From an uncultured virus (IMG/VR IMGVR_UViG_3300031942_000002) (taxonomy: Duplodnaviria > Heunggongvirae > Uroviricota > Caudoviricetes), in the IMG/VR virus record IMGVR_UViG_3300031942_000002: a stretch of 64,000 bases of DNA; one strand, 5' to 3'. The position numbers and the translations under genes are program-made. Positions 3,797-13,049 of this stretch are shown piece by piece (within the stretch, counting starts at the first letter, position 1; every line of letters begins with the position of its first letter). The notes under the pieces were generated by a model. It did no database searches. It was given only the letters and a program-made list of their open reading frames with translations, and was not told the DNA's origin.

Positions 3797-3984
3797 TCGG
3801 AGTCGAGGCCCGCAACCTCAGGCCGGGGGATGAGATTCTCGGTTTCGGGGTCGTCGAATCGGCCCGGTGCGACAGCGACGGCGACATCGCCGTCCGGTTC
3901 GTCGAGCCCAGCCATTTGGGAGCCCTGGTCTGGTTCGGCTACAGCGCCTGGTTGCGCATCGAGCGCAAGGAAGAGAAGAAATGA
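3793..3984 (+). CDS. hypothetical protein
   Basis: GGAGACACAC RBS; ATGA coupling. Confidence 0.65.
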   Translation: MIGVEARNLRPGDEILGFGVVESARCDSDGDIAVRFVEPSHLGALVWFGYSAWLRIERKEEKK

Positions 3985-3994
3985 GGAGACACAC

Positions 3995-4390
3995 ATGAAA
4001 GTACTGGTGAGCACGGGGGAAGTGCCCTACGGCGAGTTCTGCTACGTGCCCGAGGGCGAGATCGTGGCCAGCTTCGGCGCCGTCTGCTGCAACGCAGGCG
4101 GCTGCGGCTGCGACCGCTCGATCTCAGGCACCACCACCTACCGGGCAACGACCACGGCCAAGGTGGTTGAGCGCGAGGTGAGCTGGGATGATCTGTTCCA
4201 GCTGGCAGCCAAAGCAGGCAAGGAGACCGGCTGGGGCGGGCCCATCGTCTGGAACGCCATCCAGAGCACCGTCGAGGCGGTCGAGGAGCTGGACGTCGGC
4301 ACCGTCGTGGAGCCGAGGTACGACGACATCAACGAGCGATGGAAGTACGTCGAGGTCAGCCCCGAGCAGATGGCGCCAACTGATGTCTGA
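3995..4390 (+). CDS. Cys-containing hypothetical protein (MKVLVST...CGCDRS...RATTTA)
   Basis: GGAGACACAC immediately before ATG 3995; start later than ORF track. Confidence 0.7.
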   Translation: MKVLVSTGEVPYGEFCYVPEGEIVASFGAVCCNAGGCGCDRSISGTTTYRATTTAKVVEREVSWDDLFQLAAKAGKETGWGGPIVWNAIQSTVEAVEELDVGTVVEPRYDDINERWKYVEVSPEQMAPTDV

Positions 4391-4423
4391 GGAGCGCATG
4401 TGGGTAGCGCGGAGGGCCGAGCG

Positions 4424-4591
4424 ATGAGCGTTCCCACTCCCAATTGTCCCTACTGTGACCAGCCGCCCGTCCTCCTCCTCGACGAAGGTCGACAGGCGTT
4501 CTGCGGCAACGAGGACTGCAAGGTGCTGTGCTGGGACACCACTTGCACGGCCGACGAGCTGGAAGCCGGTCGCAAAGATATAACTACCTGA
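4424..4591 (+). CDS. small zinc-ribbon-like protein
   Basis: CPYC...CGNEDC; GGAGG upstream. Confidence 0.55.
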   Translation: MSVPTPNCPYCDQPPVLLLDEGRQAFCGNEDCKVLCWDTTCTADELEAGRKDITT

Positions 4592-4785: not shown

Positions 4786-5319
4786 GTGCCCTTCACGCGG
4801 CTCTCAGAGGCCACCCGGGTCTTCCTGGCGTCCTCGTTCTACTGCCCGGTCCCCGTCACGCTGGTGGACGTCTCAGGCGGCAAATGGGCCTACCTGGACT
4901 ACATGGCGGCGGCGTGGGAGCGCGGCGAGGATTTCATCACCATGGAGCATGACACCGTGCCCTGGCCCGGCGCCATCGAGACGCTGCTGGATTGTCCGCA
5001 CCCCTGGTGCTTCTTCGGCTACCAGCAGGGCATCGACTTCGTCGGCACCGGCGCCACCCCGCTGGGGCTCGCGCGGTTCCGCGCCGAGTTCATCGCGGCC
5101 GCGCCCGATGTCTGGAAGCTGATGCGCGTGGTCTACGGCCAGCGCGAGATGGACGATCCCTGGCGCCACTTGGATCTGCACCTGGGTCGCTACGCCGGGT
5201 TCAGGGGGTGGCGGGCCCATCAGCACTATCCGGCGGTGCTCAACGCCAATCCCAGGATCCTGGGCATGGGCCCGGCGTACTACACCCCGCCGCCTGTTGT
5301 AGGCCCGCAAGGCTTATAG
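4786..5319 (+). CDS. short glycosyltransferase-like protein (GT-A type)
   Basis: FITMEHDTVPWPG (DxD-equivalent EHD after hydrophobic strand), LGLARF, WRHLD, late His. Confidence 0.5.
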   Translation: MPFTRLSEATRVFLASSFYCPVPVTLVDVSGGKWAYLDYMAAAWERGEDFITMEHDTVPWPGAIETLLDCPHPWCFFGYQQGIDFVGTGATPLGLARFRAEFIAAAPDVWKLMRVVYGQREMDDPWRHLDLHLGRYAGFRGWRAHQHYPAVLNANPRILGMGPAYYTPPPVVGPQGL

Positions 5320-5652
5320 GTTATCCCCGTCGTCGGACCCCACGGTCGCGGCGGTCTTTTCTTTGAGCAGCTCGGCCAGCTCGGGTCCGATCCGATATTT
5401 CATTCGGCGGGACCGGGAGAATTCACGCTCGGTGACGGTCACCGGCAGCGTCTTAATACCCAGTTCGATGGCGATCATTACCCGCTTGTGGCCTTCGGCC
5501 ATGAAGACGAACCGGCCGTCGGTGTGCAGCTCCACCGGCGTGCGCACCCCTTCGGTGCGGATTCGCACCCGTAGCTTCTTGTAGTCGTGCAGCTCCTGCA
5601 GGGTGCGATGGCTGCGGTAGCGGTACAGCTCTTTGGTTGAGATCTCAGCCAT
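5314..5652 (-). CDS. ParB/Srx-like N-terminal domain protein
   Basis: IRTEGVRTPVEL...MAEGHKRVMIAIELGIKTLPV matches the ParBc GxxxP...xGHxRxxA...G...P pattern. Confidence 0.7.
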   Translation of the reverse strand: MAEISTKELYRYRSHRTLQELHDYKKLRVRIRTEGVRTPVELHTDGRFVFMAEGHKRVMIAIELGIKTLPVTVTEREFSRSRRMKYRIGPELAELLKEKTAATVGSDDGDNL

Positions 5653-5667
5653 GGGCCGATCCTCCCA

Positions 5668-6366
5668 TCAAATCGCGGTGGACGGGACGTAGACGTGGTG
5701 GATCGGCTTGAAGAAATCGTGCTCGACCGGCCGGTCCCCGCCCTCCCCGATGCGCAGCAGCAGTCGCCACCCCGACTGGCTGGCTTGGCACGGCCGGTGC
5801 AGGTTCCACCAGTCCCACGTCGTCCACATGCCGTTGGGGAACGCGATCGCCTCGAAGCTCGCCGCGCTGGCCTTGGCGTGGATGTCGCGCATCACCCCCC
5901 AGTCGTCGGGGTGCTCGATGTCCAGGGTCACCGGCTCGTTGGCGAACACGGTGGGGCACGGGTTGCCCACCACGATGGTGTGGTGGCGCACGTGGCGCCC
6001 GGCCTGGGTCTGCTTGACCATCTCGGTCAGCGACGGGTAGTCCATGGCATCGGGGGTCATGCCGGGCAGCTGGGTGGGCTCTTCGGGGGTGAGCCGGGGG
6101 ATGTCGTCGAGATGCCAGCCCGGCTGGGTGGGGCACTGGCCCACGTGCAGGTAGTTGACCACCGTCTCGACGTAGATGTCCTCGCCGTCGCCTTCCAGCG
6201 GCGCGGTTTCCAGGATCAGCCGCACCAGCGGCCCGCCGAAGCGCATGGCGTTGGTCAGCGAGCACCGCTTCAAGTTGGGAGTCATCTCCAACGCTTCCAG
6301 GCTGGCCGGGAAGTAGTACTGCTCGGAGTTGGTGACCTGGTTGGAGCTGAAGACGAACTCGCTCAT
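5668..6366 (-). CDS. 2OG-Fe(II) oxygenase-like (DSBH) protein
   Basis: PGWHLD (HxD), distal LH followed 11 residues later by R (LHRPCQASQSGWRLLLR). Confidence 0.6.
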   Translation of the reverse strand: MSEFVFSSNQVTNSEQYYFPASLEALEMTPNLKRCSLTNAMRFGGPLVRLILETAPLEGDGEDIYVETVVNYLHVGQCPTQPGWHLDDIPRLTPEEPTQLPGMTPDAMDYPSLTEMVKQTQAGRHVRHHTIVVGNPCPTVFANEPVTLDIEHPDDWGVMRDIHAKASAASFEAIAFPNGMWTTWDWWNLHRPCQASQSGWRLLLRIGEGGDRPVEHDFFKPIHHVYVPSTAI

Positions 6367-6794
6367 CAGTCAAATTTCCGCTCGGTCATGTTCGGATATC
6401 TTCTCAGCATGTCGTCGATGTGCCGCAGGCCACGCTGGTTGATTATCAGCACATGCTGGCCCTCGCGCTCCAACTCCTGGTTGCCGATGAGGGTGACGTC
6501 CAAATAACCGAAGACGCGGTACAGCTCGGAGTGGCGCTTCCAATGGCACATTTTGGACGTCCCGCCGTTAGCGGGGACGGGAAGGTTCATCACGCGGGCG
6601 ATTTCGTCGGCGGTTAATCCTTGTTGTCCCACGTACCAGTTGGGTCGGTCCCTGAGCAGGATCCCATGCGTGTAGAGCATATTGAACCGCAGTTCATTGC
6701 GGCGGCTTTGGTTGATGGCTGCTGCCTTCCAACTGGTGGGTGGATCACTGTGTCGGGCGCCGTCACTGGGGCCGGGGAAGGGGAGAACAGTCAT
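6366..6794 (-). CDS. hypothetical protein, possible winged-helix DNA-binding
   Basis: ARHSDPPTSWKAA then GLTADEIA...WKRHSEL...G; ATGA-coupled to SNF2 stop. Confidence 0.55.
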   Translation of the reverse strand: MTVLPFPGPSDGARHSDPPTSWKAAAINQSRRNELRFNMLYTHGILLRDRPNWYVGQQGLTADEIARVMNLPVPANGGTSKMCHWKRHSELYRVFGYLDVTLIGNQELEREGQHVLIINQRGLRHIDDMLRRYPNMTERKFD

Positions 6795-8716
6795 GTCACT
6801 CGTTTCCAAAAATCACGGTCATCTCCGAAAAGTAAATAATCAGCGTTCGATATCTCGTCTCGGGTGGCGATCTCAGGTAACGAGACGACTTCACTCGTGC
6901 CCAGCGTGGCCTCGGCCAGCTGGCGCCGATACTCGCAGATCCCGGCGATGCGCTCCTCGATCGAGTTCTCGGTCACATAGATGTACGCGGTCAGCCCGGC
7001 CAGCTGGGAGTCGGTGCGGTGGATCCGGTTGATCCGCTGCTGGAAATCGTCGTAGCTGTACGGGCATTCGTACTGGATGCAGTACTTGGCCTCCTGCATG
7101 TTGAGGCCATACGCCCCGGCGTCGCTGGACAGGAACAACGTGATCTCGGCATCGGCCTTGAAACAGTCCTGGGCCCGCTGGGACTCCTTGGCGGTCTGGC
7201 CGGTGCCGTAGTGCACCACATGCTTCACCTTGCGCTTGTCCAGCTCACGACTCAAAATATGCAAGCCCAAATTGGTCCATTTGGTGAAAGCGACGCATTT
7301 ATCTCCGGCGTCGGCAATCGATTCCACCTGGTCGAGGAAGTACTCCATCTTCGCGGAGTTGGCGCTGGTGATCAGCCGGGGGTATTCCTCCATCAGCACC
7401 CGCGCCAGCGGTGAGATGGAGTGCGCCAACGCTTCCGGCGTGTTGCACACGTACCGCTGCAGCAGCGCGTAGGACGTCAACGACTCCCCCTCACGCTTGG
7501 CGATGCGGGCCAGGTACTCGATCTCGTCGATCAGCTGGCGGTCCTCGGGACTCATCTGGATCGGGATGAACTCCACTTGCAGCGGCGGGAAGTATTCGCG
7601 CACACCGGGATCGCCTTTACGCGCGTTCTGCACCCGGTCGGCCACCCGGTGGCGCACCTCATGCAACGCGGCCAAATCCCAGTCGTAGTCGGTGACGGTG
7701 AACGACCCGCCGTGGCGGGTGGTGCGCTGGTAGGTGCGCTTCTTCGGGTTGCCCCAGTTGTCGCGTTCCAGGTAGCGCTCCTCGAAGTCCGCCCGGCTGC
7801 CCAGCGGGTTGTCCCGAGCTTGACTCAAGGCGAACAGCGAGCGGTAGCGTAGCGGATTGGAGCCCACAATGGAGGCAGTCATCGGCCAGATGGTGGCCCG
7901 GCAGCCCTTGATCAGCTGATCGAGCGCCTTGCGGGCCTGGGTCTTGGTCTCGGCGGTAAGCACCTTCTGCACCTCGTCGAGCACGAACAGCACACGCTTT
8001 CCGGCGGTCAGCTCGGACAGTTCCTCGAAGTCGAAGCGCGGTTTGTCGTAGTTGACCACGAACACGTCGTGCTCGCTGGCGTAGAGCTTGCGGCGCCGGT
8101 CTTTAGTCCCGTCCACCACAACGGCTTTCAGCTCGGTGGTGTCGGCGAAGAACGCCCGCAGGTTGTCTTTGTGGCGCATCAGGGTGAAAGCTAGCACCAC
8201 GTCCACAAGGCCCCTGTTGGCCAGCTCCTGAGCCCCTGCGCAGGCGAACAGGCTCTTCCCGGCACCGGCACACCACCCGGGCACCGTGAGGCGCTCAGAG
8301 GCCTTCTGAGCCTCGTTCCGTTCCAGCGCCCGCTGAATCCCGAAGGTCTGATAGGGCCGCAGCTGCCCGTGGTGCGGGCAGGTGAAGCCCTGCACGTCCA
8401 GCGGCGCCGCCCAGCGCTCGAAGTCGGCTAGGATCGGATCCGCCGACGGGTCATACACCAGCAGCCAGCTGTCGTCGAGCAGCTGGCGGATGAAATGGCG
8501 CAGGTTGTGGTGCTCGTTGAGCACCAGGAACCGGCTGATCCAGTTCTCCTCCAAGCCGTAGCGCTGGAAGAAGCCCTGCCGGTCCCCGTCGAACGGTTCG
8601 AAACGCAGGCAGCCCGAGTAGGCGGTGGACTCGCTGACCAACACGACGGTGTCCAGGTCGACCTCGGGGTCGCTGGCCAAAAGTTCGATGGTCGACTCAA
8701 CCGTCGCGTGTGTCAC
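6791..8716 (-). CDS. SNF2-family (SF2) helicase/ATPase
   Basis: LRPYQ, GAGKS, DEVQ, TAS, SAKM, AGAYGLNMQ, QRINRIHR; start placed at GTG 8716, 6 nt after TACAAT and downstream of a terminator. Confidence 0.9.
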   Translation of the reverse strand: MTHATVESTIELLASDPEVDLDTVVLVSESTAYSGCLRFEPFDGDRQGFFQRYGLEENWISRFLVLNEHHNLRHFIRQLLDDSWLLVYDPSADPILADFERWAAPLDVQGFTCPHHGQLRPYQTFGIQRALERNEAQKASERLTVPGWCAGAGKSLFACAGAQELANRGLVDVVLAFTLMRHKDNLRAFFADTTELKAVVVDGTKDRRRKLYASEHDVFVVNYDKPRFDFEELSELTAGKRVLFVLDEVQKVLTAETKTQARKALDQLIKGCRATIWPMTASIVGSNPLRYRSLFALSQARDNPLGSRADFEERYLERDNWGNPKKRTYQRTTRHGGSFTVTDYDWDLAALHEVRHRVADRVQNARKGDPGVREYFPPLQVEFIPIQMSPEDRQLIDEIEYLARIAKREGESLTSYALLQRYVCNTPEALAHSISPLARVLMEEYPRLITSANSAKMEYFLDQVESIADAGDKCVAFTKWTNLGLHILSRELDKRKVKHVVHYGTGQTAKESQRAQDCFKADAEITLFLSSDAGAYGLNMQEAKYCIQYECPYSYDDFQQRINRIHRTDSQLAGLTAYIYVTENSIEERIAGICEYRRQLAEATLGTSEVVSLPEIATRDEISNADYLLFGDDRDFWKRVT

Positions 8717-8749
8717 CAGCTCATTGTAGGAAAATTGGACGACTTGTGG

Positions 8750-8783
8750 AAAGAAAAGAGCCCCGGCTCCCATGTGCCGGGGC
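8750..8783 (-). terminator. intrinsic terminator
   Basis: 8-bp GC stem GCCCCGGC/GCCGGGGC (8760-8767/8776-8783) followed on minus strand by TCTTTTCTTT. Confidence 0.75.
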
Positions 8784-9140
8784 CCTTCGGAGAAGTTGCC
8801 ACTGTCTCCACGCATCTCTGTGCGTATCTGAGAGTATCTCTACATCTGGGGGGTAGTGCAACCAGTTCACCCAACATGTTGGACGGGGTTGCGCTCCCGG
8901 TTACCGGATGGTAATTGTTGCAGCTGCCACTGCCCCTCCTACCGGCGCTTACGGGGAGACCCGCCGAAAAACCCGCTCTCCCTTCCCGTTCCGTATCCGG
9001 AGTACCTGACACGGCTCCCGGTACTGAGTCTCCTACGAGGAAATCCCGGGCCGGGCCGGGTACCCGAAGCTCGCAGCTGCAGAGCAAGCCTCAGGTCAAT
9101 GCGTATCAGCTCTCTGTCACTCCAAGACAGGGGGCCAGAG
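8750..9140 (-). ncRNA. candidate structured non-coding RNA, class unknown
   Basis: No credible ORF; at least nine stems; putative CTGACC-18-TACTGT promoter (9178-9149) and terminator at 8750-8783. Confidence 0.45.
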
Positions 9141-9238
9141 GTGGTGTGACAGTACCGGAGATGGCAAATGGGGGTCAGTCGCCTGGGGGGTCACCGAGGC
9201 AAGGCCCGAAGTAGGCCCTAAGACCCAGGAGAACTCCA

Positions 9239-9835
9239 ATTCCCCAGCAAACCCGCTCAGAGCCCCGTAGAAGGCGCAGCAAAGACGAATACGCCCAGTA
9301 CATCAATTCGACCAGCTGGGAGCGCAGGAAGGCAGCCTTCTATGCCAATCACAAGAGGCAGTGCCAGGCGTGCGGGAGCGTCATCGACATCCACCTGCAT
9401 CACCACACCTACCGGCGGATGGGAGCTGAGTTGGACTCCGATCTGGTTCCGCTGTGTCAGCGTTGTCACGACCTCGTGCACAAGCTGCACAAGGAGAACG
9501 AGGGTTGGACGCTGACCCGAGCGACGAGGACGTTCCTGCGGTTTTACGGCGCCAACCTGACTCCCCGACGGGCCAGGCCGAAAGGACAGCGTCCCGCGCG
9601 TCGTCGCCAACCCAAGCCCGAGCCACCCACCCTGCAGCCAGTCATCGTTAGCGACAAACCCGCCCCGGCGCCGCGCCCCGAGCTGAATCTGCATCCCCAG
9701 CCACTGATCAGGCTGGCCGAGGTGGTGGTGGAGTTCGGGATATCCAAGTCTGTGTTGCACCGTCAGGGATATCAACGGTCGGTGCCTCAGGGAACAGTGG
9801 AGCGGTGGCGTCGGATACGCCCCGAGTGGATGTGA
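9239..9835 (+). CDS. HNH endonuclease, start uncertain (possible ATT)
   Basis: In-frame YAQYINSTSWERRK...CQACG...LHHHTY...LVPLCQRCHDLVH extends well upstream of ATG 9419; AGGAGA at 9227-9232. Confidence 0.75.
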   Translation: MPQQTRSEPRRRRSKDEYAQYINSTSWERRKAAFYANHKRQCQACGSVIDIHLHHHTYRRMGAELDSDLVPLCQRCHDLVHKLHKENEGWTLTRATRTFLRFYGANLTPRRARPKGQRPARRRQPKPEPPTLQPVIVSDKPAPAPRPELNLHPQPLIRLAEVVVEFGISKSVLHRQGYQRSVPQGTVERWRRIRPEWM

Positions 9836-9842
9836 TAGGGAA

Positions 9843-9861
9843 TATACCTGTAGGGTAAACT
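9843..9861 (+). promoter_or_regulatory. WWACC-N5-GGTAAACT promoter/operator motif
   Basis: TATACC-TGTAG-GGTAAACT upstream of GGAGACACAC-ATG. Confidence 0.7.
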
Positions 9862-9893
9862 CGTTCATGAGATTGTAAGGAAGGGAGACACAC

Positions 9894-11372
9894 ATGGAAT
9901 ACCCACCGACCGCCGAACAGCAGGCGGTCATCGACGGGGCCCTGAGCGGGGACAACCTGGTCGTGCAGGCGGGCGCCGGGACGGGCAAGACGTCCACCCT
10001 GGTGATGGTGGCCGAGCAGCTGCCGAAACGCAGCCTGTACGTGGCCTACAACAAGCCGATCCAGCTGGATGCCTCGGGCAAGTTCCCCGGGCACGTCACC
10101 TGCAAGACCAGCCACGGGCTGGCCTACGGGGCGGTGGGCAAGGACTTCCGGCACCGGATCTCGGGCAAGCGCGAGCCGAGCTGGGAGGTGGCCAAACGGA
10201 TGGGGCTGCGCAACCTGCGATTAGGCCGCGACGTCATGGTGAAGTCCAGCCACCTGGCGCGTATCGCCGGGGACACGGTGCGCCGGTTCTGCTACAGCGC
10301 CGACGACGAGATCACCGCCCGCCACGTCCCACCGCAGAACGGGATCATCGGGGCCGACCACGCCGTCCTGGTGGCCAACGTGCTGCCACTGGCCCAGCGC
10401 TGGTGGGCCGACGTCAACGACCGCAGCGGCTGGATGCCGTTCGAGCACGATCACTATCTGAAGATGTGGGCGTTGACCCGGCCGGAGCTGCCCTACTACA
10501 CCATCTACTTCGATGAGGCGCAGGACGCCAACCCGGTGCTGGCCAAGCTGATCAGCGATCAGAACGCCCAGCAGATCATCGTGGGGGACTCGTGCCAGCA
10601 GATGTATGCCTGGCGCGGGGCGGTCGATGCGCTGGGCGGCTGGAAGAACGCCCGTCAGCTCTATCTGGCGCAGTCCTGGCGGTTCGGGCAGGCGATCGCG
10701 GACGAGGCCAACAAATGGCTGCACCAGCTGCACACCCCGCTGGAACTGATCGGCAACCCGCACATGGACTCGGTGGTGGACACCTTGGAGAAGCCCAAGG
10801 CGATCCTGTGCCGCACGAATGCGGGCGCCATGGGCCACGTGCTGGGCGAGCTGGACTCGGGCCGTCGGGTGTCCTTGGTGGGCGGCGGTGACGCATTGAG
10901 CAGGCTGGCTCGGGCGGCGGGGGACTTGCGGGAAGGCAAGACCACCAACCACCCCGAGCTGTACGCCTTCCCCGACTGGGACTCGGTGGTGCGCTACGCC
11001 ACCGAGGAGGAGGGGGGCCGCGACCTGCTGCCGCTGATCAAGCTGATCGAGGAGCATGGCATCGAGCGGATCCTGGAAGCCACCAACGCACTCTCCCGCA
11101 ACGAGGACGACGCCGACGTGATCGTCTCCACCGCGCACAAGAGCAAGGGTCGGCAGTGGGAGACGGTCAAGGTGGCCGGGGACTTCTTCGCCCCGCGCGT
11201 CACCGAGGACGGCGAGACGCCGACCATCTCGGAGGCCGAGGCAATGATCGGCTACGTGGCGGTCACCCGAGCCAAGGAGGTGCTGGACTGCGCGGCGGTG
11301 TCCTGGATCGACGACCTGGTGGACACCGCCGGGCCCGAGGAGGACGAGGGCGGCATGGTGCTGAGCTGGTAA
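9894..11372 (+). CDS. UvrD/REP-like SF1 helicase
   Basis: AGAGTGKT, FDEAQD, VGDSCQQMYAWRGA, QSWRF, LCRTNA, STAHKSKG, YVAVTRA. Confidence 0.93.
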   Translation: MEYPPTAEQQAVIDGALSGDNLVVQAGAGTGKTSTLVMVAEQLPKRSLYVAYNKPIQLDASGKFPGHVTCKTSHGLAYGAVGKDFRHRISGKREPSWEVAKRMGLRNLRLGRDVMVKSSHLARIAGDTVRRFCYSADDEITARHVPPQNGIIGADHAVLVANVLPLAQRWWADVNDRSGWMPFEHDHYLKMWALTRPELPYYTIYFDEAQDANPVLAKLISDQNAQQIIVGDSCQQMYAWRGAVDALGGWKNARQLYLAQSWRFGQAIADEANKWLHQLHTPLELIGNPHMDSVVDTLEKPKAILCRTNAGAMGHVLGELDSGRRVSLVGGGDALSRLARAAGDLREGKTTNHPELYAFPDWDSVVRYATEEEGGRDLLPLIKLIEEHGIERILEATNALSRNEDDADVIVSTAHKSKGRQWETVKVAGDFFAPRVTEDGETPTISEAEAMIGYVAVTRAKEVLDCAAVSWIDDLVDTAGPEEDEGGMVLSW

Positions 11373-11481
11373 AAAGAACCGTCTCACTATCATTAGATCA
11401 ACATTGTGTGTAAATTAGAGGACATAAAAGGGGTCCTCCCCAGGATGGCGAGTTGATCGAGATGGAGCAGGGGGCCGGATA

Positions 11482-12207
11482 GTGACGAAGGGGAAATACG
11501 CCCAGCGTGCCGATTCCCGGCTCAAGGTGCTCGAATCCGAGGCTCTGCAGCAGGCCCACGCCAAGATCAAGGAGCTGACCGAGCAGCTGTCGGCGGTGAA
11601 GAAGGAGATCAACGAGGTTCGGGCCGGGATCCACTCCAAGGCGATGGCTGCCGCCACTGGGCTATCCAAACGGGAGAAGGAGCACCTGCGCGATCAGCTG
11701 GTGTCGATGGCCTATCAACATGACGCCGACCGGATGCGTTATGCCGTGCTGGTCTGGGAGATCATGCACCGCAATAAGTTCGGCACCCCGGCGCCGCTGC
11801 AGATGGAACGGGATTCCGAGTCCCACGAATACTGGCTCTCGATGCACTGGGAGATCGCCACGTTGTTCTTCAAGGAGTGGGAGCAGATCCAGGAGTTCTT
11901 CGCCCGATGCGAAGGCACCAGGTGGCGTCTGGCTGGATCAGGTGCCTCTCATTTGCGTGGCGGCATGCCGCTGCCCCCGCAGACCTCTCGGGAGGCCACC
12001 CGGCGGTTAGAGAAAGGGCGCATGAAGAACTCGCTGATGCGCCGGGTTTTTGCCATGCGGGCCTACTTCGACCGCATCGAGGCCGCCCGCAAGACCGGGG
12101 ACCTCGAACCCGTCCTGGCCTTCAAAGATTCCCGCAACGACGAGACCCCTGAGGATGTCCGCGACAAACTGATCGAAGGGCTTAAGGATCGTGGCCAAGA
12201 AGCATAA
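11482..12207 (+). CDS. hypothetical protein with N-terminal coiled coil
   Basis: Long ORF, heptad-like N-terminus. Confidence 0.65.
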   Translation: MTKGKYAQRADSRLKVLESEALQQAHAKIKELTEQLSAVKKEINEVRAGIHSKAMAAATGLSKREKEHLRDQLVSMAYQHDADRMRYAVLVWEIMHRNKFGTPAPLQMERDSESHEYWLSMHWEIATLFFKEWEQIQEFFARCEGTRWRLAGSGASHLRGGMPLPPQTSREATRRLEKGRMKNSLMRRVFAMRAYFDRIEAARKTGDLEPVLAFKDSRNDETPEDVRDKLIEGLKDRGQEA

Positions 12208-12526
12208 GAGTCGTCATCGCGTTCCGCCGCAGGCTTACGAGCTGCATAGCGATCCGATCAGCGAGCGTTATCAGATCGAGGTGGACTACGCCACCAATCG
12301 GCTGCAGCGCCGTTACGAGGCGGCACTGCGGGCCCGGGAGGCAGCCCAGCGCCGTTTGAGGTTGGCCACCGAGACCAATGCCAAGGTTTCCCGGCTGGCC
12401 GAGCTGCGCCGTCAGCTGGATATGCGCGAATACGAGCTGGGCGAAATCATGAAGCTGATGCAACCAGGAAATCGGACCAAGGTCCCATGGCGGCCGGTTC
12501 CGATCACGCATACGGCGCCGGGGTAG
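12191..12526 (+). CDS. basic helical hypothetical protein
   Basis: AAGGA RBS; overlaps upstream gene. Confidence 0.6.
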   Translation: MAKKHKSRHRVPPQAYELHSDPISERYQIEVDYATNRLQRRYEAALRAREAAQRRLRLATETNAKVSRLAELRRQLDMREYELGEIMKLMQPGNRTKVPWRPVPITHTAPG

Positions 12527-12651
12527 GCCTGGCATTAGAGCAGTATTATAGGTAAATTAGAAGATATACACGACAGGAGACACACACCAATGCACGAAAC
12601 GCAGGTAACCGACGAGCGCGGTGGGCCTCAGACGGTGAAGCGAGAGGCGTC

Positions 12652-12852
12652 GTGAACGACCAGATCCTGCACCTGCACTATTACGCGGCGCCTCGGGCGC
12701 GAGCACTGCCACCGGCGCGTCGCAAACCAGGTGTGGCCGAGGAAATTTTCACCAACTTCACTCGGGGCTACCTGCTGGGATGCGCGGTGTTCGGCACCTT
12801 CATCATGGTGGGCTTGTTCCTATTTGTCGTCTTGGCGTTCCTCTTCGCGTGA
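12652..12852 (+). CDS. small membrane protein
   Basis: C-terminal hydrophobic helix. Confidence 0.6.
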   Translation: MNDQILHLHYYAAPRARALPPARRKPGVAEEIFTNFTRGYLLGCAVFGTFIMVGLFLFVVLAFLFA

Positions 12853-13049
12853 TGATGGGGGCCATGGCCATGAGACTCGACGAAGCCGAGGAACGCATCG
12901 GTGCCCAGGTGGTCTTCCAGATCCACGACACCGACCACCAGCCCGAGTACGGCGTGATCAGCCACGTCAACGATCCCTATGTGTACGTGCGCTATGGCGC
13001 CGACCGCATCGCCAAAGCCACCCACCCGATGATGTTGGAGTTCATATGA
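12852..13049 (+). CDS. small hypothetical protein (SH3-like barrel possible)
   Basis: TGATG coupling; YGVISHVNDPYVYVRYG. Confidence 0.55.
   Translation: MMGAMAMRLDEAEERIGAQVVFQIHDTDHQPEYGVISHVNDPYVYVRYGADRIAKATHPMMLEFI

Follow-up and report, generated by a model that had tools for sequence, protein, structure and literature searches.

A stretch of 64,000 nucleotides (nt) from an uncultured virus of the Caudoviricetes (IMG/VR record IMGVR_UViG_3300031942_000002), hereafter the window, includes a non-coding gap (8717-9238) between a gene for an SNF2-family helicase and one for an HNH endonuclease. The SNF2-proximal part of this gap is a real, conserved, strand-specific hairpin cassette that ends in an intrinsic terminator. 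Our best reading places the functional element at ~8745-8954 on the minus strand, with a possible weak extension to ~8975. We interpret it as a minus-strand non-coding transcription unit with its 3′ end at the terminator (~8750), which would most likely yield a 76-nt putative small RNA (sRNA) and possibly a longer RNA; our confidence in this interpretation and our doubt about it are about evenly balanced. A sequence-only reading of the same DNA had described a discrete structured RNA of ~390 nt, with its own promoter and terminator and possibly partnered with the HNH protein. A terminator-ended minus-strand transcript is a reasonable inference from that description, and part of it is conserved and covarying, but the ~390-nt extent is not supported, its 5′ half being neither conserved nor structured beyond chance. 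The element is probably an unclassified phage sRNA gene of a known general kind, shorter than proposed and independent of the HNH gene. Within a 125.7-kb record (~63% GC; CheckV completeness 84%), the window corresponds to bases 8162-72161, minus strand.

The comparisons below draw on two syntenic relatives. One, L017, has an SNF2 protein with 88% identity to that of the window, and the other, L014 (one relative with L002), shares 71% amino-acid identity in SNF2 and 67% in a UvrD-like helicase encoded beyond the HNH gene. Locus L015 is the same phage on a 161.7-kb contig, and L016 is 97.9% identical at the nucleotide level and identical across the gap; because both match the window in this region, there are only three distinct versions of the gap. 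A more distant SNF2 relative, L023, is 42% identical.

The 3′ boundary of the element is an intrinsic terminator (8747..8787, minus strand) comprising a 12-bp stem (8787-8776/8767-8756, with one G-U pair), an 8-nt loop, and a TTCTTTCC tail, which bears out the GC hairpin and U-tract that had been placed between the unit and the SNF2 promoter. In a strict scan that required a mismatch-free stem of at least 8 bp including at least 5 GC pairs, a loop of 3-10 nt, and at least 6 T in the next 9 nt, it is the sole match on either strand of the 64-kb window. The second and last match of the 125.7-kb record lies at G000:C1 ~116980-117010 (minus), directly after a 337-aa gene; with two strict-scan matches in 125.7 kb, canonical terminators are very rare in this record. 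The hairpin and T-tract are oriented for the minus strand only, and both L017 and L014 retain the stem, in which one change is compensatory and several are one-sided.

The terminator is placed 20 nt upstream of the -10 box of a leaderless-type SNF2 promoter (TACAAT, 8723..8728, minus; a match in the sigma-70 scan), which is followed after 6 nt by the GTG start codon. A -10 box, 6 nt, and then a start codon constitute the geometry of leaderless mRNA starts in Actinobacteria. The same arrangement is present in L017 (TATAAT-GTG), L014 (TATAAT-GTG), and L023 (TAGACT-6-ATG) (start regions at 8723-8716 in the window, 4989-5003 in L017, 4989-5003 in L014, and 1462-1476 in L023), and the order of terminator, TAYAAT, 6 nt, and GTG forms one architecture in three phages (window, L017, and L014). 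The SNF2 start looks leaderless in four phages, down to 42% protein identity, and the neighboring UvrD-like gene has a clear Shine-Dalgarno (SD) sequence. Because a strong terminator without a preceding gene stands just ahead of a leaderless promoter, we infer that real minus-strand transcription ends at this site; the terminator would shield the leaderless SNF2 promoter from incoming transcription.

The same layout could also exist with no functional RNA, as regulatory DNA of a divergent promoter region in which the terminator does no more than keep stray transcription away from the leaderless SNF2 promoter. The region does sit between divergent operons, and an upstream terminator would be useful in itself because a leaderless start needs transcripts beginning at the GTG. 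A terminator nevertheless implies transcription towards it, and with the structural evidence described below we consider the absence of any functional RNA unlikely.

Two further hairpins precede the terminator on the minus strand. The hairpin GGAGA/TCTCC (8789..8809, minus) has an 11-nt loop that holds the second copy (8804-8797) of a repeated motif, CAGTGGCA, and is invariant between the window and L017 and absent from L014. The hairpin ACGCA/TGCGT (8810..8825, minus), the candidate 5′ hairpin of the 76-nt sRNA, reads ACGTG/CACGT in L017, where two adjacent pairs are changed on both sides. Folded together, the 3′ 78 nt (8748-8825, minus) form three hairpins at -40.4 kcal/mol (z-score -4.67; 0 of 200 shuffles as good; minimum free energy structure frequency 0.40), and the equivalents of this cassette reach z -5.02 in L017 and z -3.10 in L014. 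Farther upstream lie hairpin 4, ACAT(G)TTGGG/CCCAGATGT (8842..8879, minus; 19-nt loop), and a set of helices (8901..8954, minus) common to L017 only, namely TTACC/GGTAA (8914-8901), GCAGT/GCTGC (8933-8920), which carries the first motif copy (8932-8925), and CCG/CGG (8954-8942). Hairpin 4 is kept with compensatory changes in both relatives (11 bp with a 15-nt loop in L017; 11-12 bp with a 13-nt loop in L014), and its pairs include one G-U and no A-C in each of the three sequences.

The folding of longer segments was compared with 150 dinucleotide shuffles each, the SNF2 strand being the minus strand in the window. The proximal segment (8745-8954) reached z -2.73 on the SNF2 strand and -2.30 on the other strand, the module of L017 z -4.18 and -1.67, and that of L014 z -4.10 and -2.68; the 227 nt of L014 counted from its best promoter reached z -5.85 and -4.11. 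In the distal part of the gap, 8955-9145 gave z -0.82 on the minus strand and +0.08 on the other, and 8955-9226 gave z -0.25 and +0.39. The whole 429-nt unit is marginal, with z -2.27 on the plus strand and z -1.66 on the minus strand, where 8 of 100 dinucleotide shuffles did as well. The expectation that the unit would fold better than dinucleotide shuffles thus holds for its proximal part, whereas the distal part is at chance. Each of the stems listed earlier that was checked does pair as described (10/10), two of them being complete only with G-U pairs on the minus strand. Inverted repeats in regulatory DNA would fold well on both strands too, a point in favor of a DNA-level function, but the stronger folding of the SNF2 strand in L017 and L014 speaks against it.

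With only the window and L017 as input, a covariance model (A3, 46 pairs) locates the syntenic site in L014 (28.7 bits, E ~1e-7 in 185 kb) and finds nothing in 11 non-syntenic helicase loci; by covariance model search, the module is single-copy in G000, the record that contains the window. Of the 120 cells in a three-row alignment fitted to this model, 98.3% pair. Changes on both sides affect 7 of the 46 pairs, whereas shuffles gave 2.8 +/- 1.4 (none of 500 reaching 7) and slid controls 0-2, these counts being taken from three sequences in a fitted alignment. The double changes sit in hairpin 4, in a small helix between hairpin 4 and ACGCA/TGCGT, in the ACGCA/TGCGT hairpin, and in the terminator. 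Helices 1-3 and the GGAGA/TCTCC hairpin, which are invariant and missing from L014, are uninformative either way. In the comparison of the window with L017, identity is 84/92 in paired columns and 67/116 in unpaired columns. The non-Watson-Crick cells on the SNF2 strand comprise 12 G-U versus 1 A-C, which would disfavor a role as DNA only; the count is biased, as this is the strand used to predict the structure.

That the gap holds no credible gene, as had been proposed, is upheld by its GC content by codon phase, which is flat across 8717-9226 (0.64/0.57/0.59; the neighboring genes have GC3 of 0.76-0.93 and GC2 of 0.41-0.49), and by its open reading frames (ORFs), which are not preserved in frame in L017. 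Three candidate coding sequences were rejected, each without a family match, phase signal, or conservation in L017: a 124-aa minus-strand ORF, a 99-aa plus-strand ORF that joins the HNH frame through a TAG, and an extension of SNF2 from ATG 8815. The SNF2 N-terminus, M-T-H, is common to the window, L014, and L017, and the long minus-strand ORF from ATG 8815 is an artifact, because these three share M-T-H at the GTG and diverge upstream of it.

Nor does the region belong to a described RNA family. Among the 4227 models of Rfam 15, none matched at the gathering score in the 64-kb window or in L018; six sub-threshold matches in the window correspond to the terminator hairpin or to noise, and the sub-threshold matches returned by E-value scans differ among the window, L014, and L017 regions. 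ARAGORN identified 0 tRNA or transfer-messenger RNA genes in the window, and no group I or group II intron family was matched in the Rfam scans of the window, in agreement with the earlier failure to recognize a tRNA, transfer-messenger RNA, or intron. A self-splicing intron with an HNH homing endonuclease was likewise rejected, as no intron family is matched and the HNH gene occupies an intergenic variable cassette rather than the interior of a gene.

Promoter-like sequences that bear on the 5′ end of the RNA were considered across 8700-9260. Four TAnnnT boxes are found on the minus strand (8728-8723, the SNF2 promoter; 8836-8831, TACTCT; 8913-8908, TACCAT; and 9154-9149) and none on the plus strand. 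The TACCAT box is lost in L017, and the box at 8836 is the only one with positional counterparts in both relatives. It forms the -10 element of candidate promoter P2 (8831..8862, minus), which has TACTCT at 8836-8831, a G at -14, and a -35-like TTGCAC at 8862-8857 across a 19-nt spacer; its counterparts in the same place are TACACT in L017 (TTGCGA-19) and TAGTCT in L014 (TGGACA-18, TGn), with a G at -14 in each. In the window, L017, and L014, a TAnnnT box stands 5-7 nt past hairpin 4. A start 6-8 nt past P2 (~8825-8823) would coincide with the base of the ACGCA/TGCGT hairpin, and the resulting RNA would be 76 nt long.

The candidate sRNA (~8825 to 8750) would thus consist of three hairpins, namely the 5′ hairpin ACGCA/TGCGT, a middle hairpin GGAGA/TCTCC presenting the loop CAGUGGCAACU, and the terminator hairpin, and would be made from the weak, positionally conserved promoter with its -10 TACTCT at 8836-8831. 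Production of the RNA, its start site, and its action as an sRNA are all predicted. The sequence GAGATACNCT does not recur as a phage promoter motif (5 matches versus 7.0 expected). In L014, the 11-nt word TGGTTGGGTGA in the body of the candidate sRNA (4921-4931) recurs at 10/11 positions at 4994-5004, across the SNF2 start codon, in the same sense and not complementary.

Several points weigh against a 76-nt sRNA. P2 is a poor sigma-70 match (3-4/6 in the -35 element, spacer of 19) and is not flagged by the sigma-70 scan. Hairpin 4 is weak in the window (-9.6 kcal/mol, z +0.41) versus z -2.98 and -4.00 in the relatives, and if it is an RNA helix, as its variable loop and one G-U per sequence might suggest, the RNA must start upstream of P2. 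Identity over the whole block between the window and L017 is 151/208 (72.6%), about neutral (four-fold sites in SNF2 are 0.749 identical between the two, over 279 sites), so conservation between these two as such is not evidence. The covariation counts lean towards the structure, which was derived from the same three distinct sequences and to which the counted alignment was fitted. The hairpin module is absent from the more distant L023, with its 42% identical SNF2. A search of the phage genome for a complementary target found no excess of 9-12-mers (7 ten-mer matches versus a mean of 17 for shuffled seeds), and of the 24 runs listed, none is recorded as an RNA run.

Because P2 is weak, hairpin 4 lies upstream of it, and L014 has a promoter ~225 nt upstream, a longer RNA or nested transcripts are possible; such a transcript would also bear hairpin 4 and the upstream helices. 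This could be a ~393-nt RNA initiated by CTGACC-18-TACTGT (start near 9142) and ended by the 8750 terminator, or a structured RNA of 220-400 nt that includes hairpin 4 and the upstream helices, alternatives that we regard as improbable. The promoter on which the longest form would depend is present (9149..9178, minus), as the sequence-only reading stated: TACTGT has a G at -14 and, spaced by 18 nt, CTGACC, and is among just four minus-strand TAnnnT boxes in 8700-9260. It nevertheless falls under the sigma-70 scan threshold and sits in non-conserved DNA, within a cassette that is replaced in L017. In L014, TTCAGA-17-TATACT is the sole promoter to pass the sigma-70 scan and is located ~225 nt upstream of the end of the terminator, at the head of the 227-nt stretch with z -5.85, and in L017 a TAGTGT is found just upstream of the conserved block; these three upstream promoter candidates, however, are mutually non-homologous. 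Hairpin 4 covaries, with a loop of 19, 15, or 13 nt and one G-U per sequence, and so fits an RNA helix upstream of P2. Against a long RNA stand the 5′ 190-270 nt of the window, which fold no better than shuffles (the distal z-scores of -0.82 and -0.25 given above), the z of only -1.66 for the whole unit, and the lack of a homolog of the 5′ part in L017 and L002, where the HNH cassette with which it arrived is absent.

The long-range stem that had been proposed to enclose the 5′ half (8919-8927/9073-9081) does pair, but it consists of two copies of a self-complementary word, TGCAGCTGC(A), and the second copy lies in DNA without a homolog. Such a palindromic repeat, of which the relatives lack the second copy, argues against a long RNA held together by this stem. 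The word itself has 6 strand matches versus 1.0 expected (0 of 100 shuffles reach 6), at window positions 8919, 9073, 16139, 47972, and 48213, an excess that may reflect either Ala-codon usage or a recognition site.

A second repeat concerns the hairpin apices. The sequence CAGTGGCA(A/G)CT occurs twice on the minus strand (8932 and 8804), each time at or near a hairpin apex, and in L017 both copies are CAGTAGCA, a perfect 12-nt repeat; the copies are 128 nt apart in both the window and L017. Neither the 11-nt motif nor the arms of hairpin 4 have further copies elsewhere in the genome. The repeat points to a common partner of the two copies, which could be read as RNA or as DNA. Were the motif (CAGU-RGCA) read as RNA, the transcript must be long, as the copies are 128 nt apart, and the concerted change of the two CAGU-RGCA-apex hairpins is in favor of the longer RNA discussed above. 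If no functional RNA exists, hairpin 4 and the two CAGTGGCA sites could instead be protein-binding sites, for example two operators on either side of a promoter, separated by 128 bp and joined by DNA looping; copies exactly 128 nt apart with the same G-to-A change in L017 would be expected from the co-evolution of operator and repressor. A loop of 13-19 nt in hairpin 4, however, would alter the phasing of half-sites, and the lack of further genome copies of the hairpin-4 arms and of the 11-nt motif also counts against operators.

A more speculative interpretation, which we think rather doubtful, is that the whole ~225-nt block (8750 to ~8975) represents a new structured phage RNA class, which large high-GC soil phages of one small clade would share. 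It would form a hairpin array that ends in one of the two strict-scan terminators of the genome and has a dedicated protein or RNA partner, and it might control the helicase operons or replication priming rather than behave as an ordinary base-pairing sRNA. The dedicated partner is suggested because the two CAGU-RGCA hairpins, exactly 128 nt apart, change in concert.

The proposed partnership with the HNH protein is not supported. The HNH gene is present in L015 and L016 only (2/4 of loci L014-L017) and absent from L017 and from the 96%-complete record (G001) that holds L002, and the proximal module is kept in L017 and in L014/L002, both without an HNH gene (2/2 distinct relatives). Nucleotide similarity between the window and L017 runs from inside SNF2 to 8954 and resumes at 9839; between these points, the window has 884 nt (8955-9838, comprising 272 nt of non-coding DNA and the HNH gene) versus 401 nt in L017. 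We suggest that the HNH gene and the 272 nt on its left are a later cassette insertion that lies outside the element. Because the long-range stem, the stems nested within it, and the promoter at 9178-9149 are inside this variable cassette, they travel with the HNH gene and are not part of the conserved element.

The distal non-coding segment (8955..9226) makes up the left part of the 884-nt cassette and has neither excess folding nor a codon-phase signal. Distal sequence (8955-9238) shows no significant similarity to L017 (score 21 versus a shuffle mean of 17.8) or to L002 (20 versus 19.5), and the distal part of L017 resembles that of L002 (34 versus 19.0 +/- 2.2). The cassette lies between the anchors AAGCGCCGG and GGAATATACC, which bound a swap site; where the window has the HNH gene, L017 encodes at 4331-4531 (in the window's plus direction) a 66-aa Cys-rich ORF with a CPRCG..HC pattern and its own SD. 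Among soil DNA contigs (runs X19, X20, X21, and X23), the L017-like form was recovered in 4/4 and the window form across the whole stretch in 3/4, with no new variants. Over window positions 8500-10000, the window form and the L017-like form (without HNH, with 634 other letters between 8766 and 9873) co-occur as two alleles in the same habitat.

A replication origin, the principal alternative offered by the sequence-only reading, is very improbable. The site is indeed enclosed by two helicase genes (SNF2 and UvrD-like), has a ParB-like gene in its vicinity, and contains hairpins and one two-copy repeat. It has no AT-rich stretch, however, the lowest GC content over 50 nt being 0.48; its repeats are short and two-copy and do not form an iteron array; and cumulative GC skew makes no turn here. 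In addition, L023 (42% identical) has only ~120 nt between its divergent genes.

Among known systems, one resemblance is to the classical sRNAs of bacteria, plasmids, and phages (ctRNA and RNA I types), which are 60-110 nt long, have two or three hairpins, and end in a terminator. The candidate sRNA shares their size, 5′ hairpin, exposed loop, and intrinsic terminator, and its weak Rfam matches to BjrC68, Spot_42, and ctRNA_p42d rest on the terminator. These matches are far below the gathering scores (17.4 versus 39 for BjrC68, 16.4 versus 80 for Spot_42, and 15.8 versus 50 for ctRNA_p42d). Because the plus strand of 8700-9260 has no TAnnnT box, the element would have no antisense partner.

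HEARO, the omega RNA of IscB (RF02033-type), is an HNH-associated structured RNA located beside IscB, a protein with RuvC and HNH domains. The window resembles this system in having a structured non-coding region that adjoins an HNH-domain gene, a likeness that may have inspired the partnership proposed in the sequence-only reading. It differs in lacking an Rfam match at any level, in encoding a protein of 198 aa with HNH only and no RuvC, and in the persistence of the module without HNH. Given the lack of an Rfam match, of RuvC, and of co-occurrence with HNH, we rejected identity with a HEARO/IscB omega RNA.

Two phage systems offer parallels, and the element is of their general kind. Cluster A mycobacteriophages (L5, D29, and StarStuff) make an abundant, stable ~500-nt RNA from the early promoter Pleft, and D29 makes a small RNA from its 63-64 intergenic region (PMC5712189); for the Pleft RNA, the authors, in the sections of that paper used here, report no evident canonical terminator (PMC5712189). 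Like the element described here, these RNAs, as portrayed in those sections, are non-coding, are encoded beside early promoters in an early or replication region within a high-GC genome, have no conserved ORF, and are of unknown function. They share no sequence similarity with it by blastn of 8700-9260 against the phage collection, the window element is defined by a terminator, and expression was shown there, whereas here it is predicted from sequence. At lambdoid late promoters, a short terminated RNA is produced upstream of the late operon (the PR′-tR′ 6S RNA; StxS, PMC7547250). As described in the portion of that work drawn on here, the likeness lies in a promoter, a short structured RNA, and a strong terminator directly upstream of an operon, and the lambdoid RNA can itself regulate. 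Unlike the late operon in that account, the gene downstream of the window element has its own leaderless promoter past the terminator, as it does in three phages; no Q-like antiterminator was found, none having been looked for, and the hosts are unrelated.

The non-coding RNAs of actinophage-like phages are barely charted, with few known from RNA sequencing (L5 and D29) and these without known function. The locus is a compact candidate in that it has a defined predicted 3′ end, three natural variants, and a layout in which a terminator is followed by a leaderless promoter. It also holds a caution for sequence-only scans, in that a free-standing HNH cassette beside such an element can inflate an apparent RNA gene.

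The relatives were collected with several searches. The UvrD query returned 12 loci, 1 of them syntenic, and the SNF2 queries returned L014, L015-L017, and the distant L023. No relatives came from a scan of genome_contigs, and the HNH query had no match in viral_contigs. Three DNA-pattern scans of viral_contigs gave 0, 0, and 3 loci, the last comprising L019, which is the L002/L014 contig, and L020 and L021, which are chance coding matches. No DNA relatives were found in the phage collection by blastn of 8700-9260 against 50,697 phage records or by megablast of 5000-13000. Besides the gap that the sequence-only reading called the largest, others of 457-912 nt appear in the window by crude gene calls, which are unreliable; two other large gaps that were inspected had no promoter-like or terminator-like sites, and at least one of them holds a long ORF.

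The genes that flank the gap can be assigned as follows. The SNF2-family helicase gene (6791..8716, minus) starts at GTG 8716-8714 and matches Pfam Helicase_C (6.6e-14) and the DNA helicase family PHROG 62 (9.6e-65). The HNH endonuclease gene (9227..9835, plus) carries AGGAGA (9227-9232), probably starts at ATT 9239, terminates with the codon at 9833-9835, and encodes 198 aa; its product just misses the Pfam HNH cut-off (21.1 bits versus 21.4) and matches PHROG HNH families down to 1e-9. Its frame is open from 9215, and the first in-frame ATG, GTG, or TTG occurs only at 9419, inside the HNH motif. HNH homologs begin with M..VQQTRSE, which aligns with IPQQTRSE in the window, so the start is likely ATT 9239, 6 nt after AGGAGA. 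From its sequence, the gene is either translated from ATT or in decay. An ATG at 9161 shares the HNH frame but is separated from the gene by TAG 9212.

The UvrD-like helicase gene (9894-11372, plus) matches Pfam UvrD families and PHROG 1967 (2.2e-92), has the SD GGAAGGGAG, and is preceded by a candidate -10 box, TAAACT (9856-9861, plus), which is kept as TAAACT or TAAATT in L017 and L014. The closest named phages infect Streptomyces and Arthrobacter; because these match at just 36-37% helicase identity, an actinobacterial host is suggested but is not a finding. Elsewhere in the window, a 186-aa protein encoded at 3830-4390 (plus) matches DUF7715 (1.3e-19), and nearby are several small ORFs without a family.

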